Shown piece by piece: positions 36,162-42,748 of a stretch of DNA of 64,000 bases. How positions within the stretch are numbered: position 1 is the stretch's first letter; every line of letters starts with the position of its first letter. The DNA comes from Legionellales bacterium (GTDB lineage: Bacteria > Pseudomonadota > Gammaproteobacteria > JAGOUN01): the NCBI GenBank assembly GCA_027486005.1, contig JAIXPZ010000060.1:3088-67087 (forward strand), written 5' to 3'. The translations under genes and the position numbers were made by a program. Under the pieces are notes generated by a model that saw nothing but the letters and a program-made list of their open reading frames with translations, was not told the DNA's origin and ran no database searches.

Positions 36162-38753
36162 CTATTTCTTCTTTGTCGGCCAAATACTGATCAACATTAC
36201 AATAAATGTCGCTAGGTAAGGCACCATCTGCACCACTAAAATGGTGATCCAACGTTGACCAACTGGATTATTAAAATGCTCCGTAAAACTCATTGCAGCC
36301 ACCGCCACTATCAACGCCAGTAAAATTACAAGTTCTTGGCGAATACTCATTAAACCTGCAAATAGCGCCCCTCGTTTTTCATTTTTTGGGGTGCGCAAAA
36401 AAGGTAAATTATTGGTGAATAACCCTCTGAGCGTTCCCCTAGCGATAGTATGCGTGAGTGATAAACCTGCCAAAAATGCACCAAAGGTTTGCCCAATAGT
36501 GCACGGCACACGCGCACGATAAAGCCACAGGCTTCGTAAAATCTTAAAGCTGAATATTCCAATAGTTGGCAACAAAAATGCGCCGGCAGGCACTTCATAG
36601 TGAATAGGATCGTACAACAGAAGCGCGGTGAGAGATAAACTCATTAGGGTAAATATCAACGCTAATGCATCTGAAAACCACGGCAACCAACCCGCTAAAA
36701 AATAATAACGCTGCGCTGCTGTTAAAGGCGATTTTCTGAAGGGTAAAAAATTACGCCAATGTTTTTTAAGAATCTGCATTGCGCCATAGACCCAACGAAA
36801 TCTTTGTCCTCGATAAGCAGAGAACGTATCTGGCATTAAGCCTTGCCCCAAGGATTTATTGGCATAAACAGAATCATAACCGGCTTCATACAAACTCAAT
36901 CCCAATTCGCTATCTTCAGTAATACACCATTGTGCCCAACCACCCATTTGTATTAATGCAGTCTTGCGAATCAAGGTCATTGTACCATGTTGAATAATGG
37001 CGTTATATTCATTGCGCTGTACCATACCAATATTAAAAAATCCCGCATATTCCCAATAGCAACAGGCTTTAAATCCATTTTCTTTGCTATCGCGATAATC
37101 TTGCGGCGATTGCACAAACGCGACTTTTTCATTATCGAAATATGGCACCATTGACCTCAACCAATCCGGTGACACTTTATAATCACTATCAATCACTGCA
37201 ATAATTTCTACATCGTTTGACGTTTGTTCTAACGCGTAATTCACCGCACCCGCTTTAAAACCTGGCCAATTGTCCAAATGGAAAAAGCGGAAATTCAATC
37301 CTAATCGGGCACAATCTTCTCGCACCGGCTCCCATATTGCTGGATCTTTGGTATTGTTATCAATGACCAACACTTCAAAATTAGGGTAATCCAAACGCGC
37401 GGCTGCTTCTAATGTTTCACGCACCATATCTGGCGGTTCATTATGAATCGGGATATGAATAGAGACTTTAGGATAGCGAAAATTCTCAGGCGGCGATAAT
37501 GGTTGGAACAATCGCACCGTTTTTCGATACCAAATAACGTCGACAATTTCTAAACTTTCCACCAATAAAATTAACACGGCGATAACTTGCATCAACAAAG
37601 TGAGGCCAACAAAAATCAATGATAATTTTGTTTGATAGCGATGGGCCATCACTGAAATAGACCATAATAGCGTTGAAGCGCCTAAATTAGTGACCAAACC
37701 TAAAAATAGTAGCCCAGGTAATTTGATACTACGTCTAGCAAATACAAAAATACCCATCATCACTGCGCTCAATACCGATGCCCATATGGCCCAATACTGC
37801 CATCCAGGAACCGTCAACACATTGCCATTCAAAGGATATTTTGCTTGTCGGTCAGAATCAAAAATACCCCAATACGCACCGACAGAGCCTTCCATAGATA
37901 TTTTCCAAGGCTGGTCAAAGGCTTCAAGAATATAATAATTCACTTGTTCTTTTTCCGCGCGTCGTATCATTTCACGTAAAAAGGTAGCTTGATTTGCACG
38001 TGACGGAATTGAGTGACCAAACGGTTGCCCATCCGATGGCCAGCCCACTTCAGTAATTACGATAGGTTTAGCAGGATATGCTTTTTGTAATTGCATATAC
38101 TGGTCAAAAACAAGATCAACCGCATCATCAACAGCAACACCTGACCAATACGGTGCGAGATGCACCGCAATATAATCGACCTCTGCCACAAGCTTTGGAT
38201 GCGACATCCAATTAAACCATGTTTCTGAGGTGCTCACCGGTCGCTGTTCATACTGTTTCACCTCACGAATATAGTCTATTAGCTGCTGCTCAGAGGTATC
38301 TTTTCGTAGCAGCACTTCATTCCCCACTAAAACACGTACAATATTCTGGGTATTGTTTTGCAAGGTTGCTCGTAGTAAGTCCATTTCTTGGCGATTTTGC
38401 TCTAAATTTTCTCCAATCAATGCCCCAAGCGCCACATTAAGATTATGTTTCGCGGCTAATTGGGGCACTTGGTTCAAACCTCGAGAAACGCTAAAAGTTC
38501 TAACTGAATGCACTTTATTCTCTAGCAAAGCTAAATCACTTTCGATATCAGCAGCACTTGGATATTTATCATTGGTTTGAGTGTCATTTTTACGCATAGG
38601 ATCAAAATCCACACCCATGGTTGTTTTCGTCCAAGGCTGTAATTGCAATGGATTATTGACATAACTCCAAATACTGAAGTTAAGAATAACCAATAAAACG
38701 ATGGCTATTAACGCGGTTAAGATTGCGACTTTTTTTTTCATTGAGGTTGCCAA
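36162..38753 (-). CDS. Bifunctional glycoside hydrolase family 17 / glycosyltransferase family 2 membrane protein (NdvB-like beta-1,3-glucan synthase)
   Basis: 863 aa. The N-terminal periplasmic GH17 domain has LVGNEVL and ITEVGWPS (catalytic Glu pair). The C-terminal GT2 has VIDSDY/DXD and the Q(R)xRW motif (RGQRFRW), flanked by TM helices. The true start is probably the ATG at 38741. Confidence 0.7.
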   Translation of the reverse strand: MATSMKKKVAILTALIAIVLLVILNFSIWSYVNNPLQLQPWTKTTMGVDFDPMRKNDTQTNDKYPSAADIESDLALLENKVHSVRTFSVSRGLNQVPQLAAKHNLNVALGALIGENLEQNRQEMDLLRATLQNNTQNIVRVLVGNEVLLRKDTSEQQLIDYIREVKQYEQRPVSTSETWFNWMSHPKLVAEVDYIAVHLAPYWSGVAVDDAVDLVFDQYMQLQKAYPAKPIVITEVGWPSDGQPFGHSIPSRANQATFLREMIRRAEKEQVNYYILEAFDQPWKISMEGSVGAYWGIFDSDRQAKYPLNGNVLTVPGWQYWAIWASVLSAVMMGIFVFARRSIKLPGLLFLGLVTNLGASTLLWSISVMAHRYQTKLSLIFVGLTLLMQVIAVLILLVESLEIVDVIWYRKTVRLFQPLSPPENFRYPKVSIHIPIHNEPPDMVRETLEAAARLDYPNFEVLVIDNNTKDPAIWEPVREDCARLGLNFRFFHLDNWPGFKAGAVNYALEQTSNDVEIIAVIDSDYKVSPDWLRSMVPYFDNEKVAFVQSPQDYRDSKENGFKACCYWEYAGFFNIGMVQRNEYNAIIQHGTMTLIRKTALIQMGGWAQWCITEDSELGLSLYEAGYDSVYANKSLGQGLMPDTFSAYRGQRFRWVYGAMQILKKHWRNFLPFRKSPLTAAQRYYFLAGWLPWFSDALALIFTLMSLSLTALLLYDPIHYEVPAGAFLLPTIGIFSFKILRSLWLYRARVPCTIGQTFGAFLAGLSLTHTIARGTLRGLFTNNLPFLRTPKNEKRGALFAGLMSIRQELVILLALIVAVAAMSFTEHFNNPVGQRWITILVVQMVPYLATFIVMLISIWPTKKK

Positions 38754-38818: not shown

Positions 38819-40144
38819 TTAGGAAGTCATGCGCATATTCAACCATTGCTCCAATTCTTTCACAGTCACTCCAAGCCCAGCAATACGAGGCGGCGCGAGC
38901 TCAGCAAGATCTTCCATCAAATCTTCTTTAAAATTTATTTGATCTTTTTCTGGAATATGTTCTTTCGTTTGTAGATCCGCATATGCCTTAAGATTATCTC
39001 CAATTAATTGTTGTAGAATAATCTCACGGATCACCTTTCTACGCTGAGTTCGATAACGTACGCGAATTTCATCAAATCCTATTACCTCAAGCGTCACAGC
39101 ATATTCTTCACTGGTTTTCTGATACGAAGAAGCAAATATATTTGCAAGCGGGCCCACTTCATTCAATTCATAAATGGCAATCATTGCAGAAATATAATCT
39201 TCTTTATTAATGTAATTAAAAGAAAGCGGCACTAAATTGTTTTTAATCAAAGGAATATTTGCGCTTAATCGAGCGGTTCGCTTATTCACATCAGCAAAAG
39301 CTTGCAAATACGCAACATGCACTAAAAGAAAAAAACTCTGCTCATAAGGATCCGTAATTTTATTGGCTGTCTCACAGATATAATATAACTCATCCACCAG
39401 AGGATCACGCCCTTCTAAGGTCATATATGTCGTTCCATAAACACGCACTGCATGATCTCGAACATTTCCAACTGAAGATGATGGTTGAAGCAAGCCGTCG
39501 GATAATAAGTAATGCAGTGTACAAATTTCATCATAATTAATTTGAAGTCTATGAGCGTTATCTACAAGATGTCGAATAGCCTCTTTATGATTAAGAATCA
39601 TAACTTTTTCTTCATCTAACTTATCTGTATTCGCCACACCTTCTATAATTAATTTCTCAGTTTCTAGCAACGAATAAGTATTACCCTCTAAGCGTGATGA
39701 GTTATACGATAAATCAATTAACAAACGGTTATAAATTCTTCTCGCATAAGTTCCAGCCGGATCTTTTGAGGTGCTCTGCTCCGCGTGCATGGCACGCAAA
39801 AGAGCCCATGTGCCTTGAGGCAAATAACGATCAATATTGGGTCGATAAGCGTGCACCCATTCTATATTATAAGCAACAGGTTGACGTTGATATAACGGCT
39901 TTTTGATTTGCTCCAAAATACTATGACTCTGAGCAGTAAAACTTGATGGTTTTATTGATAGATAAGTAGTATTACGTTTTTCCCCTATTTTTATTATCAT
40001 TCCCGCACGAACGAACTGCTCAAGCCATCGCCTAACCGTACGCTCAGGAAAATCAGGCCCTAATTGTTGCAATAACACTGATAAACCTACAGGTGATAAT
40101 TGGTTGTTAAGCACCCTGAAAAGAGCATTTTTTTTTGAATTCAT
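38819..40144 (-). CDS. Fic/Doc-fold protein with an N-terminal winged-helix and a degenerate catalytic motif
   Basis: Contains the Fic-family SRLEGNTYS motif. The core-motif position reads QAFADVNKRTAR instead of HPFx(D/E)GNGRxxR, so the catalytic His is replaced by Gln. The N-terminal ~70 aa look like a winged helix-turn-helix (wHTH). I chose the start at the ATG at 40144 because the ORF-track 5' extension is built from the direct repeats. Confidence 0.5.
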   Translation of the reverse strand: MNSKKNALFRVLNNQLSPVGLSVLLQQLGPDFPERTVRRWLEQFVRAGMIIKIGEKRNTTYLSIKPSSFTAQSHSILEQIKKPLYQRQPVAYNIEWVHAYRPNIDRYLPQGTWALLRAMHAEQSTSKDPAGTYARRIYNRLLIDLSYNSSRLEGNTYSLLETEKLIIEGVANTDKLDEEKVMILNHKEAIRHLVDNAHRLQINYDEICTLHYLLSDGLLQPSSSVGNVRDHAVRVYGTTYMTLEGRDPLVDELYYICETANKITDPYEQSFFLLVHVAYLQAFADVNKRTARLSANIPLIKNNLVPLSFNYINKEDYISAMIAIYELNEVGPLANIFASSYQKTSEEYAVTLEVIGFDEIRVRYRTQRRKVIREIILQQLIGDNLKAYADLQTKEHIPEKDQINFKEDLMEDLAELAPPRIAGLGVTVKELEQWLNMRMTS

Positions 40145-40146
40145 GG

Positions 40147-40218
40147 ATACGGCCAATTTCCAATAAAGATACGGCCATTTTACCCCTGATACGGCCAAAT
40201 TTTCAATAGATACGGCCA
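40147..40218. promoter_or_regulatory. Four direct repeats of GATACGGCCA at 21/20/21-bp spacing (iteron/operator-like) immediately 5' of the Fic-like gene
   Basis: Exact 10-mers at 40147, 40168, 40188 and 40209. The spacing is about two helical turns and is not a multiple of 3 throughout, which argues for a DNA-level repeat rather than a protein-level one. Confidence 0.6.
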
Positions 40219-40340
40219 TTTTTAGGTTTTTTTAATCAATAAGTCGATTATGCTTAAAAAACTGTAAAGACTAAAGTCATACCATTCTAAGACTTCACCG
40301 ATTATACTCACGAGATAGACATTTTTTTGATATAATTTTT

Positions 40341-40943
40341 ATGGAACTTCTTAAACAGGCGCTAGATACTAATTGTATTACACTCACTGAGCAACAGATT
40401 GAAAAGCTCGCGGCTTATTTGGACCAACTTAATCGTTGGAACAAGACTTATAATTTGACAGCGATCACCGACCACAAAGAGCAAGTATATAAACATATTG
40501 TTGATAGTTTGAGCATACGTGACGCTATTAGGGGGCCAAAAGTGTGCGATGTCGGCACAGGGCCGGGTTTACCCGGAATTCCCTTGGCGATTGCTCTACC
40601 AGATATCCATTTTACTTTAGTCGACAGCAGCCAAAAACGAATCATTTTTATTCAACACACCTTGATGAAACTTGGCATTACGAATGTGACCGCATTGCAT
40701 GAGCGAATTGAAGAAAATACAGATACGTTTAATACCCTTATTTCTCGCGCCTTCAGCTCAATTCAAGATTTTGTCGAAAAAACTCGACATTTACTTGCTA
40801 ATAACGGTCAATTATTGGCCATGAAAGGCGCTTATCCAACAGAAGAATTAACCCAAATCCCACAAGACTTTATTGTCGAAGATGTGCGAAAATTGACGAT
40901 TAACGGACTAGGTGCAGAACGACATCTAGTGATTATTAAATAA
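40341..40943 (+). CDS. rsmG: 16S rRNA m7G527 methyltransferase RsmG (GidB)
   Basis: 200 aa with a SAM-binding motif (VCDVGTGPGLPGIPLAI) and a conserved RsmG C-terminus. Confidence 0.9.
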   Translation: MELLKQALDTNCITLTEQQIEKLAAYLDQLNRWNKTYNLTAITDHKEQVYKHIVDSLSIRDAIRGPKVCDVGTGPGLPGIPLAIALPDIHFTLVDSSQKRIIFIQHTLMKLGITNVTALHERIEENTDTFNTLISRAFSSIQDFVEKTRHLLANNGQLLAMKGAYPTEELTQIPQDFIVEDVRKLTINGLGAERHLVIIK

Positions 40944-40951
40944 GGTGCTTC

Positions 40952-41755
40952 GTGGGGAAAATAATTGCAATCGCTAACCAAAAAGGCGGAGTAGGAAAAA
41001 CCACTACAACCGTCAATCTTGCCGCAGCATTGGCGAAGATGGGACGCAAAGTATTATTGGTAGACCTTGATCCACAAGGCAATGCCTCTATGGCATGTCG
41101 CATGGACCGTGATAATTTATCGCTAACATGCAACGAAGTTTTACTTGGCGAAACGAATATTCGCTCGGCAATTGTTCTAACCCCCGAAAATTTTAATCTA
41201 CTTCCCTCTAATGCGGATTTAACAGAAGCTGAAATTCGTTTAGTTCAATTTGATCAACGCGAAATACAATTACGCCAACATCTTTCCATCGTTAAATCTG
41301 AATATGATTACGTTCTTATTGATTGCCCACCTTCGCTTAACATGTTAACAGCTAATGCATTAGTCGCCGCTGACTCGGTGCTCATCCCTATTCAGTGTGA
41401 ATATTATGCACTAGAAGGTCTTTCAAGTTTACTCGACACTATTGAACAATTAAAAAAAGCGGCGAATCCTTATTTGAAAATTGAGGGATTGTTGCGCACA
41501 ATGTTTGATAATCGTAGTCGATTAACTCAAGATATTTCCGCACAGTTACATGAACATTTTCCAAGTCTCGTTTATCGCACCGCCATTCCAAGAAATATTC
41601 GTCTTGCAGAAGCGCCTAGTCATGCGCAGTCGATTATTGCTTATGATATTGGATGCACAGGCGCTGCAGCTTATTTAGCATTAGCGGGAGAAGTGTTACG
41701 GCGCGATCAAGAATTAGTAGCACAAACTCCATTGCAGAATTTGATTAAAAGCTGA
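40952..41755 (+). CDS. parA: Chromosome-partitioning ATPase ParA/Soj
   Basis: The deviant Walker A KGGVGKTT is present. It is 267 aa and sits immediately downstream of rsmG, as in the gidAB-parAB arrangement. Confidence 0.85.
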   Translation: MGKIIAIANQKGGVGKTTTTVNLAAALAKMGRKVLLVDLDPQGNASMACRMDRDNLSLTCNEVLLGETNIRSAIVLTPENFNLLPSNADLTEAEIRLVQFDQREIQLRQHLSIVKSEYDYVLIDCPPSLNMLTANALVAADSVLIPIQCEYYALEGLSSLLDTIEQLKKAANPYLKIEGLLRTMFDNRSRLTQDISAQLHEHFPSLVYRTAIPRNIRLAEAPSHAQSIIAYDIGCTGAAAYLALAGEVLRRDQELVAQTPLQNLIKS

Positions 41756-42164
41756 CTTCTTGCAACCATGTTTCTAAAATAACTTTGGCTGCCATCGCAT
41801 CAACCGCTTCTTTTGCCAAAGAACGATAGCCGCCTTGCTCAAATAAAGATTGCCTCGCTTCAATCGTGCTTAAGCGTTCGTCAATCGTATGCACAATACA
41901 TTTTGTTTCTAAAGCAAGCTGTTCTGCAAACGCTTTTGCTTTTTCTGTAATCCATTGATTTGGCCCAGTTTCGTGTGTAGGAATCCCCACAATAATTGCG
42001 GCAGGCGTCCATTGTTCAATAAGTTTTTTTATTGCATGCCAATCAGGCTCTTGCGCTTGTTGCTTAAACGTCGTTAACGGACGCGCGGTTCGCGTGACAT
42101 CTTGCCCAACGGCAACACCGATATAGCGAGTGCCAAAATCAAATGCTAAATATTGTTGACTCAT
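41745..42164 (-). CDS. ruvX: Holliday-junction-resolvase-like pre-16S rRNA nuclease YqgF/RuvX
   Basis: Conserved N-terminus MSQQYLAFDFGTRYIGVAVG. The start was moved to the ATG at 42164, which overlaps the stop of the upstream ygfA by 4 nt. The ORF-track start at 42260 adds 32 non-conserved residues. Confidence 0.85.
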   Translation of the reverse strand: MSQQYLAFDFGTRYIGVAVGQDVTRTARPLTTFKQQAQEPDWHAIKKLIEQWTPAAIIVGIPTHETGPNQWITEKAKAFAEQLALETKCIVHTIDERLSTIEARQSLFEQGGYRSLAKEAVDAMAAKVILETWLQEVSF

Positions 42165-42748
42165 GGTTTCCCCGAAAACATTAATAATTCTTTTTCTGTC
42201 AACACGCCATCCAAAGGCACATCCCATGGATCGACTGGCAACTGTTGCGCACACTGACACGCATAAGCAACACCGATGAGCAAAGGCTTGTTGTGTTTAT
42301 CACGACAAAACTCAAAAACTCTATCATAAAATCCTTTACCCATTCCTAAGCGAGAACCTAAAAGGTCAAACGCAACTAAAGGCATAAGCACAATATCTAA
42401 ATCTTCAGGAAGAAGGTTGCTAGAAATATTTTCTGGCTCTTCAATGCCATATTGATTTTTTTTCATAGTGGTTGATGCATTATATTGGACAAAACTCAAC
42501 ATCTGAGTATTAATATCAATGACAGGGAGGAAAACATTATACTGTAATTGCCATAACGCGTTGATTAATGGTTGTAGATTTATTTCGCCATCAACAGCCA
42601 AATAAACTGCAATATTTTTTTGAGATTTATCTCTGCTTGCATTTAAAAAAATGTCTGCCAAAGAACAAGAAGCTAATAATTTTTTTTCGGCGGGAATGTG
42701 TCGTCTAAGAGTGCGATAATATTGCCGAATAGTGGCTTTGGTTTCCAA
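42161..42748 (-). CDS. ygfA: 5-formyltetrahydrofolate cyclo-ligase family protein
   Basis: 195 aa; motifs LLPLVAFDxxGxRLGMGKGFYDR match the MTHFS family. It probably uses a TTG start. Confidence 0.75.
   Translation of the reverse strand: METKATIRQYYRTLRRHIPAEKKLLASCSLADIFLNASRDKSQKNIAVYLAVDGEINLQPLINALWQLQYNVFLPVIDINTQMLSFVQYNASTTMKKNQYGIEEPENISSNLLPEDLDIVLMPLVAFDLLGSRLGMGKGFYDRVFEFCRDKHNKPLLIGVAYACQCAQQLPVDPWDVPLDGVLTEKELLMFSGKP

Follow-up and report, generated by a model that had tools for sequence, protein, structure and literature searches.

A Fic-fold protein with glutamine in place of the catalytic histidine, an N-terminal winged helix and a phased upstream repeat array in a Legionellales bacterium

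The stretch of DNA analysed here (hereafter, the window) comprises 64,000 nucleotides of a Legionellales bacterium (GenBank assembly GCA_027486005.1, contig JAIXPZ010000060.1, positions 3,088 to 67,087 of the forward strand). On its minus strand, at 38819-40144, it encodes a protein of 441 amino acids plus stop that consists of an N-terminal winged helix-turn-helix (wHTH) domain (about residues 1-66; 39947-40144), a Fic core (about residues 130-350) with Gln at the position of the catalytic His (hereafter, Gln-Fic) and a C-terminal all-helical domain. Immediately upstream of the gene there are four exact direct repeats of TGGCCGTATC that are interleaved with a promoter-like site. The protein begins with MNSKK. 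The first in-frame ATG lies further upstream, at 40219, and yields a longer reading of 466 amino acids that passes through the repeats. This longer reading was rejected and the start at 40144 was taken as the real one because the closest homolog (P0001, 86% identity) has exactly 441 amino acids, the alignments with homologs, which are about 440-455 amino acids long, begin at residue 1-4, and a TAA breaks the upstream extension in the syntenic, 86%-identical relative L083 (GCA_018061255.1). The DNA repeats inside the extension are kept in L083, and the 25 extra codons thus correspond to translated repeat DNA ('AVS' = GCC GTA TCn). The gene boundaries given by the first-pass annotation, a note made from the letters of the window, are thus correct, with the start backed by the homolog lengths and by the TAA in L083.

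The Fic domain is recognized by the Pfam profile PF02661 (35.6 bits against the gathering cut-off of 24, E=1.8e-8, residues 227-322 of the 466-aa reading), which also matches all 56 aligned homologs, and the three-dimensional fold matches that of Fic domains. The reverse complement of 39269-39304 (CAA GCT TTT GCT GAT GTG AAT AAG CGA ACC GCT CGA) is translated as QAFADVNKRTAR, which corresponds to the active-site motif Q281-A-F-A-D-V-N-K-R-T-A-R292. When the protein is compared with the PDB sequences using phmmer, the best matches are FICD homologs, spanning residues 131-348, and the segment 'ylqafadvnkrtarl' pairs with 'lvhpftdgngrtarl' of Caenorhabditis elegans FICD and 'yihpfidgngrtsrl' of human FICD; a profile of 56 family members reproduces this register (E=3.4e-11). 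Because the pairwise searches and the profile give one and the same register, Gln281 is assigned, by alignment, to the position of the catalytic His of FICD. The first-pass annotation had read a Gln at this position and proposed an alignment to PF02661 as a check on the register; the register itself comes from the FICD alignments, in which the 56-sequence profile puts Gln281, rather than a His, at the catalytic position. Compared with the canonical AMP-transferase motif HxFx(D/E)GNGRxxR, the protein lacks the catalytic His, and the two Gly of the anion-binding nest GNG are replaced by Val286 and the Doc-type Lys288. The residues D285, N287, R289 and R292 are present and conserved, and Q, F, D, N and the last R of the motif are at least 95% conserved among 117 diverse full-length representatives, the set to which the conservation values below also refer.

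Two additional elements of the core align with FICD. The motif S149-S-R-L-E153-G-N (39680-39700, minus strand) fits the class II inhibitory-helix pattern (S/T)xxxE(G/N) and aligns residue for residue with TVAIEGN of FICD; Glu153 is thereby paired with the gatekeeper Glu, the residue altered in the E274G entry 5jj7. Both S149 and E153 are at least 95% conserved, and in the AlphaFold2 (AF2) model a helix is found at residues 138-151, that is, an inhibitory helix in cis, N-terminal to the core, as in class II. The helix 'SRLEGNTYS' pointed out by the first-pass annotation as a Fic family feature is accordingly real and more specifically represents this autoinhibitory element. The second element is a flap-like beta-hairpin region at about residues 229-242 (39419-39460, minus strand; R229...R234...Y240), in which the AF2 model has strands at about residues 235 and 240-241. 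G226-x-x-R229, with G226 and R229 at least 95% conserved, and the hairpin that follows align with the FICD flap region 'GRFRTTQVLVG'; by analogy with known Fic structures, we infer that this hairpin is a target-docking element. A clade-specific helix M-I-L-N-H (residues 182-186; 39586-39600), which continues into K187, contains N185 and H186 that are at least 95% conserved, at positions where Gly and Met are found in the FICD alignments, and His186 is a candidate substitute catalytic or ligand-contact residue.

Taken by its fold and sequence, the Fic domain is best described as FICD-like and of class II, with a Lys of the Doc type. The resemblance to the Doc-type core that the first-pass annotation had noted holds for the NKR motif, and the likeness is confined to this loop, the fold being FICD-like. 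To our knowledge, every characterised Fic activity, namely AMPylation, UMPylation, phosphocholination, phosphorylation by Doc and deAMPylation, depends on the catalytic His. In FICD, His363 is required for both AMPylation and deAMPylation, acting as a base in the former and as an acid in the latter, whereas the Glu positions the hydrolytic water (PMC8373988). Because this mechanism needs His363, canonical His-dependent AMPylation or phosphorylation by the predicted Gln-Fic domain is unlikely, in agreement with the first reading of the sequence.

The His-to-Gln substitution is not restricted to this gene but marks a very large clade, already described in 2015 (PMC4454073). In that in silico study, Khater and Mohanty (Sci Rep 2015) described a clade, D2, of 45 sequences with the motif Qx[F|Y]x[D|E][G|V]NKR, which they assigned to the Doc subfamily and characterised as 'usually single-domain' and restricted to bacteria, leaving its function open; Q-A-F-A-D-V-N-K-R of the window protein fits this definition exactly. 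Literature searches for a characterised Gln-type Fic yielded this 2015 note and no later characterisation; the degenerate Fic2 of C. fetus represents a different variant. All 120 best homologs (90% clustering) carry Q-x-F-x-D-V-N-K-R-T-[AS]-R. Among the best 150 representatives at 50% clustering, which extend down to about 31% identity and have the consensus Q[PA]FxD[VG]NKR[TV][SA]R, Gln is present in 134 of the 135 motif-bearing sequences. Altogether, there are at least 456 clusters at 50% identity with E<=1e-30 and at least 600 loci in species-representative genomes, the latter from Chlamydiota, Gamma-, Beta- and Alphaproteobacteria, Verrucomicrobiota, Bdellovibrionota, Desulfobacterota, Bacteroidia, Acidobacteriota and one cyanobacterium; matches are also found on 84 plasmid records. 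In the 117 diverse members, conservation peaks at the inhibitory helix, the M-I-L-N-H-K helix (182-187), the G..R base of the flap and the active-site loop, and the winged helix and the C-terminal domain are variable. This pattern indicates purifying selection on the predicted pocket, not decay.

Along with the long, three-domain form, a core-only form exists. A prophage of Helicobacter bizzozeronii (BK070048.1; L177:1384-2163) encodes a 259-aa member of the clade, annotated 'Huntingtin interacting protein E-like', that has SSAQIEGNTY, MILN and YLQFFEDCNKRTAR but neither a winged helix nor a C-terminal domain. The possibility that the long form came from phages was rejected, since it occurs in only 5 loci among 2.9 million viral contigs, and phage records match only the short, core-only form. 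The window protein matches phrog_11900 (E=1.5e-31) and has no match in NCBIfam. The PADLOC matches (PDC-S04, SoFic) and most PHROG matches reflect generic similarity of the Fic core, and no defence family can be assigned from them.

The N-terminal winged helix postulated by the first-pass annotation is present at about residues 1-66, with a recognition helix at about residues 34-47 (ERTVRRWLEQFV) in which R35, R38, R39 and W40 are invariant among close homologs. Equally real are the upstream direct repeats. The sequence TGGCCGTATC occurs exactly four times in the window, always on the strand of the gene and within 40146-40218, with spacings of 22, 20 and 21 bp. These putative operator repeats are interleaved with a sigma-70-like promoter (40177-40206, minus strand) that consists of a -35 hexamer TTGAAA (40206-40201), an 18-nt spacer and a -10 hexamer TAAAAT (40182-40177). 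Repeat 1 (40209-40218), which is conserved in L083, is immediately upstream of the -35-like hexamer; repeat 2 (40188-40197) is within the spacer, a position that is kept across the homologs with TGGCCG-class repeats; repeat 3 (40168-40177) shares its first T with the last T of the -10-like hexamer; and a single base separates repeat 4 (40146-40155) from the ATG. The proximal repeat of many homologs lies 2-17 nt ahead of the start codon. The match to the promoter consensus (10 of 12 positions in a consensus scan) is not significant alone, and the support comes from conservation of the layout: TTGAAA...TAAAA-TGGCCGTAT is kept both in L083, where the arrangement of repeats and promoter is identical to that in the window, and in distant homologs.

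Similar arrays accompany the family at large. In the 200 nt upstream of 77 homologs, the distances between exact 8-mer direct-repeat pairs peak at 11-12, 20-21, 31, 41-42 and 61-62 bp, and shuffled and coding controls contain about zero such pairs; the spacings are multiples of the helical turn. At least two phased pairs are present in 56 of 74 homolog loci, compared with 5 of 100 other intergenic regions of the same loci, and beyond the upstream 228 bp the repeat density is at the background level (0.13 per kb). Four classes of repeat core can be distinguished according to the recognition helix. Helices with (V/L)RRW go with TGGCCG(T/A)A (GGCC core; 22 of 29 loci), those with KT-LQRR with TGTCC(C/A/T)TAAA (GTCC), those with KRT-LQRR, from Verrucomicrobiota, with AATCGTGCCA (GTGCC; 5 of 5 loci), and those with RRT-LQR(R/W) with TGTCGCGA or TGGCGCG (GTCGC or GGCGC). 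The architecture is kept within each class, with units before the -35 element, in the spacer, at the -10 element and near the start codon, and often with one inverted copy. Paralogs in a single genome differ in the repeat core (L013/L038; L074/L080). The repeat core changes in step with the recognition helix, as would be expected of cognate pairs of DNA-binding domains and operators. The suggestion that the winged helix and the repeats belong together gains strong support from this comparison.

Other operator classes are represented in cultured carriers that should be convenient experimental systems (L178:2880-2995 and L179:2900-2965). On plasmid 2 of Aromatoleum aromaticum EbN1, the array consists of TGGCGCGA and its inverse TCGCGCCACATAAAA, and the gene is located beside an integrase fragment; on plasmid p1 of Cereibacter azotoformans, ATCGCGACATGG-type units are spaced by 11-12 bp, and the gene is located beside ParDE and HipA. 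The 10-mer of the window is also found outside this family. In low-GC metagenome contigs (L095:6740-6960; also L093, L098, L111, L118 and L129), 22-bp iterons ACCGAAATTGGCCGTATCTTTT, in 3-7 copies, with a 10-mer core identical to that of the Gln-Fic operator in the window, adjoin a Rep_3 initiator (PF01051 and PF21205) and ParA. A BLASTP comparison of the N-terminus of Gln-Fic with the Rep_3 protein that shares the 10-mer core gave E=1.6, with no homology to WH1/WH2, and the window protein and the aligned homologs have no Rep match in Pfam; the shared 10-mer is probably a coincidence. A scan of metagenome contigs for TGGCCGTATC-N9-12-TGGCCGTATC proved uninformative on the exclusivity of the operator, with 3 of 80 loci adjoining a Gln-Fic gene and the rest being mostly 21-nt coding tandem repeats in high-GC DNA.

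The genomic neighborhoods of the family are diverse. In an all-against-all clustering of the open reading frames (ORFs) of at least 70 aa from 80 loci, no partner gene is found in more than 5 loci, and the families that recur in up to 5 loci are generic ABC, two-component and AAA_14 genes. In the window, the gene is flanked by a GH17-GT2 glycosyltransferase on one side and by rsmG-parA on the other, an arrangement that is syntenic in L083. The glycosyltransferase gene (36162-38753, same strand, 65 bp downstream) encodes an 863-aa membrane protein with a TTG start, whose L083 ortholog contains GH17 and GT2 domains; this gene and the Fic gene might share a transcript in the present lineage, a pairing that is not kept in other lineages. 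On the opposite side, rsmG (40341-40943) and parA (40952-41755) have a convergent ruvX as the next gene, and there is no parB-like gene in 40341-42260. In L083, an MFS transporter is located between rsmG and the Fic gene, and a 239-aa gene without a Pfam match follows parA; the window has neither. With a GC content of 0.37, the gene is slightly more AT-rich than its neighbors (about 0.40-0.42). Because this value is close to that of the neighbors and the locus is syntenic in an 86%-identical relative, the gene is not a recent insertion in this lineage.

In other lineages there are signs of mobility. In a 2.6-Mb contig (L173:6496-10078), the Gln-Fic gene and its operator lie between a full-length mnmE and a 123-aa mnmE fragment, whose last 78 residues are 92% identical; the cassette thus seems to have been inserted with duplication of the mnmE 3' end, leaving an insertion scar. 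On plasmids, the homologs occur in accessory contexts with an integrase fragment, ParDE and HipA as well as Phd/PIN and AAA_14 genes, and the carrier plasmids have their own RepC or RepABC and Par genes. Because the contexts range widely and no neighbor family recurs in more than 5 of the 80 loci, the operator array together with the gene would appear to be the mobile, persistent unit.

The C-terminal domain (about residues 355-441; 38822-39082, minus strand) is all-helical and of unknown fold family; an Arg-rich helix in this domain contains R361, R365, R368 and R369, which are invariant among close homologs.

We consider it fairly probable that the locus is a self-contained, autorepressed one-gene module whose payload is the Gln-Fic domain. 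Under this model, which has strong comparative support for its first step, the winged helix would bind the four helically phased TGGCCGTATC units. Given that these units flank the -35 element, fill the spacer, abut the -10 element and the start codon and so occupy the core promoter and the initiation region, their occupancy would block RNA polymerase and result in negative autoregulation. The lack of a conserved partner gene and of other operator copies in the 64 kb suggests that DNA binding controls the dose of the protein itself rather than a regulon. The payload, which retains Asp285, Asn287, Lys288, Arg289, Arg292, Glu153 and the flap-like hairpin, that is, the pocket motif residues, the gatekeeper Glu and the putative docking element, has probably kept the ability to bind a target as well as a nucleotide or phosphorylated ligand. 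Its output may be tight binding or sensing, or else Glu/Gln-assisted hydrolysis, in which Glu153, Gln281 and Lys288 would act on a substrate that has a good leaving group. A specific chemical or ligand-contact role for Gln281 is favoured because the Gln is strictly fixed rather than drifting. Judging by its distribution, the module would resemble the mobile accessory elements known from toxin-antitoxin systems or defence islands, and in this it would be comparable to the His-type HTH-Fic proteins CccR, SoFic and CbFic2. The state of the Fic domain may, in addition, depend on whether the protein is assembled on the array, which is a speculation by analogy with CbFic2 and FICD, in which DNA binding or the oligomeric state switches activity.

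Several observations weigh against this model. About a quarter of the 74 homolog loci show no clear phased repeats under the criteria used, and the promoter call depends on a single consensus match. The covariation of the recognition helix and the repeat core is confounded by shared ancestry, given that the protein and its upstream DNA are inherited together and are not phylogenetically independent. The operator scan covered 64 kb of the genome, so that distant copies, and hence a regulon, are possible. Strict invariance of the Gln and of the Mg and phosphate ligands would be expected of an active enzyme no less than of a binder. A role as a toxin or in defence is suggested by context, whereas the PADLOC matches are generic and viral contigs seldom carry the long form (5 loci).

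A bolder version of the autorepressed module can be proposed tentatively, and we regard it as unlikely to hold in full. Gln in Ras-like GTPases orients water or the scissile phosphate. By analogy, Gln-Fic could be a distinct catalytic class in which Glu153 positions the water, Gln281 orients the water or the scissile phosphate and, together with Lys288, a hydrolase results (an NTPase or a de-modifying phosphodiesterase) that would be switched by assembly on the array, as CbFic2 is by DNA; the family would then be a widespread, mobile single-gene conflict or addiction system.

Among the alternatives, the one that survives best, itself rather doubtful, is that the protein is a one-component transcription factor in which the Gln-Fic domain is a ligand-sensing pseudoenzyme that tunes DNA binding and in which other genes are controlled along with its own. 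The winged helix and the operator arrays are real, loss of the catalytic His with retention of the pocket residues suits a sensor, and CccR also affects other genes (PMC9755527). However, no operator copy is found elsewhere in the 64-kb window, the repeat density outside the upstream 228 bp does not rise above background, and no regulated neighbor is conserved in the 80 loci. Furthermore, the 259-aa short form encoded in prophages has no DNA-binding domain, which implies a function of the Gln-Fic core of its own, and the flap-like docking hairpin and the gatekeeper Glu are retained. Thus, of the 'Fic-derived DNA-binding regulator' envisaged by the first-pass annotation, the DNA-binding part is supported but is probably not the whole story.

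The protein could instead still be a transferase, either an AMPylase or a Doc-like kinase toxin, that relies on another base, such as His186, or on a nucleophile that needs no deprotonation. Invariance of the Mg and phosphate ligands, Lys288, the gatekeeper Glu and the flap-like hairpin is compatible with this possibility, as is the conservation of N185 and H186 in place of the Gly and Met of the FICD alignments; tight self-repression and the toxin-antitoxin-island contexts would suit a toxic enzyme, and a possible residual activity of D2 was argued for by Khater and Mohanty (PMC4454073). Nevertheless, this appears quite improbable considering that mutation of the Fic His abolishes activity in CccR H192A (PMC9755527), FICD H363A (PMC8373988) and Fic3 H147A, and that resemblance to Doc does not extend beyond the motif (E=0.3).

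It is very improbable that the repeats serve as iterons, with the protein acting as a DNA-binding factor related to an origin or to partition. The 20-22 bp phased direct repeats do resemble iterons, the iterons of a Rep_3 plasmid group have the identical 10-mer core, the gene is located beside rsmG-parA, and some homologs are near mnmE or parB; but the arrays are always directly upstream of the Fic gene and interleaved with its promoter, the other genomic contexts are unrelated, the carrier plasmids have their own Rep and Par genes, and no similarity to Rep_3 winged helices is detected. Finally, the notion of a decaying, non-functional remnant that lost its His by chance, for which only the missing His speaks, is effectively refuted by the intact ORF of homolog-like length, the near-invariance of the Gln down to about 31% identity, the hundreds of clusters and loci enumerated above and the conservation along the protein, which is highest in the active-site region.

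With the His-to-Gln clade already in the literature since the 2015 in silico survey, the window gene is an ordinary member of it. Absent from the literature searched are the three-domain architecture, the affinity to FICD rather than to Doc and the family-wide phased arrays that co-vary with the recognition helix; the four TGGCCGTATC copies interleaved with a promoter-like site and the phased arrays upstream of the homologs appear to be new. A Gln that is fixed across hundreds of species, many phyla and plasmids, in a pocket under strong constraint, implies a Fic-fold function that is yet to be described. If the domain is only a self-regulated binding protein, it would be a modest addition to the diversity of Fic proteins; if its chemistry or a defence role proves to be new, a large uncharacterised family opens up. 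The experimental handles beyond those of the 2015 survey include the four-copy TGGCCGTATC operator, the predicted recognition helix and the prediction of autoregulation, along with the point mutants E153G, Q281H/A, K288G and R38A/R39A and the cultured carriers (EbN1 plasmid 2 and the Cereibacter plasmids).

Among the known systems, the core is closest to FICD/HYPE and other class II Fic AMPylases and deAMPylases (PDB 4u04, 6i7k and 5jj6), which are about 17-19% identical to the window protein. In the latter, the catalytic His is exchanged for Gln and the two glycines of GNG for Val and Lys; its N-terminus is a winged helix where FICD has TPR repeats, and a helical domain is added at the C-terminus.

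Doc is a small, single-domain protein that is not known to have a cis inhibitory helix, and its Lys makes it bind ATP in an inverted orientation and act as a kinase. Like Doc of phage P1 (HxFx(D/N)(A/G)NKR; PDB 3k33), the window protein has Lys in N-K-R (N287-K288-R289). The two align in the motif region alone, with E=0.3-0.9 over about 40 residues, and Doc keeps the His; thus, N-K-R is shared with Doc, whereas the catalytic His and the overall relationship are not. Similarly, a Phd-type antitoxin partner is not conserved across the 80 loci, and the neighbors in the window are the glycosyltransferase and rsmG. In comparison with D2 as it was described from 45 sequences (PMC4454073), the clade is far larger here and has a FICD-like core, and instead of being 'usually single-domain' its common long form is three-domain, with a winged helix and cognate putative operator arrays; the single-domain form of 259 aa occurs in prophages.

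Close parallels are also CccR, SoFic and CbFic2 that, like the window protein, combine Fic and wHTH in one polypeptide and are single-gene modules. CccR of Yersinia pseudotuberculosis represses its own promoter through its HTH domain (PMC9755527), and the activity of CbFic2 is switched by DNA binding (PMC10628234). All three have a C-terminal HTH and a canonical His whose mutation abolishes AMPylation. By contrast, the window protein has an N-terminal winged helix, Gln in place of the His and, as the putative operator, a multi-copy, helically phased array.

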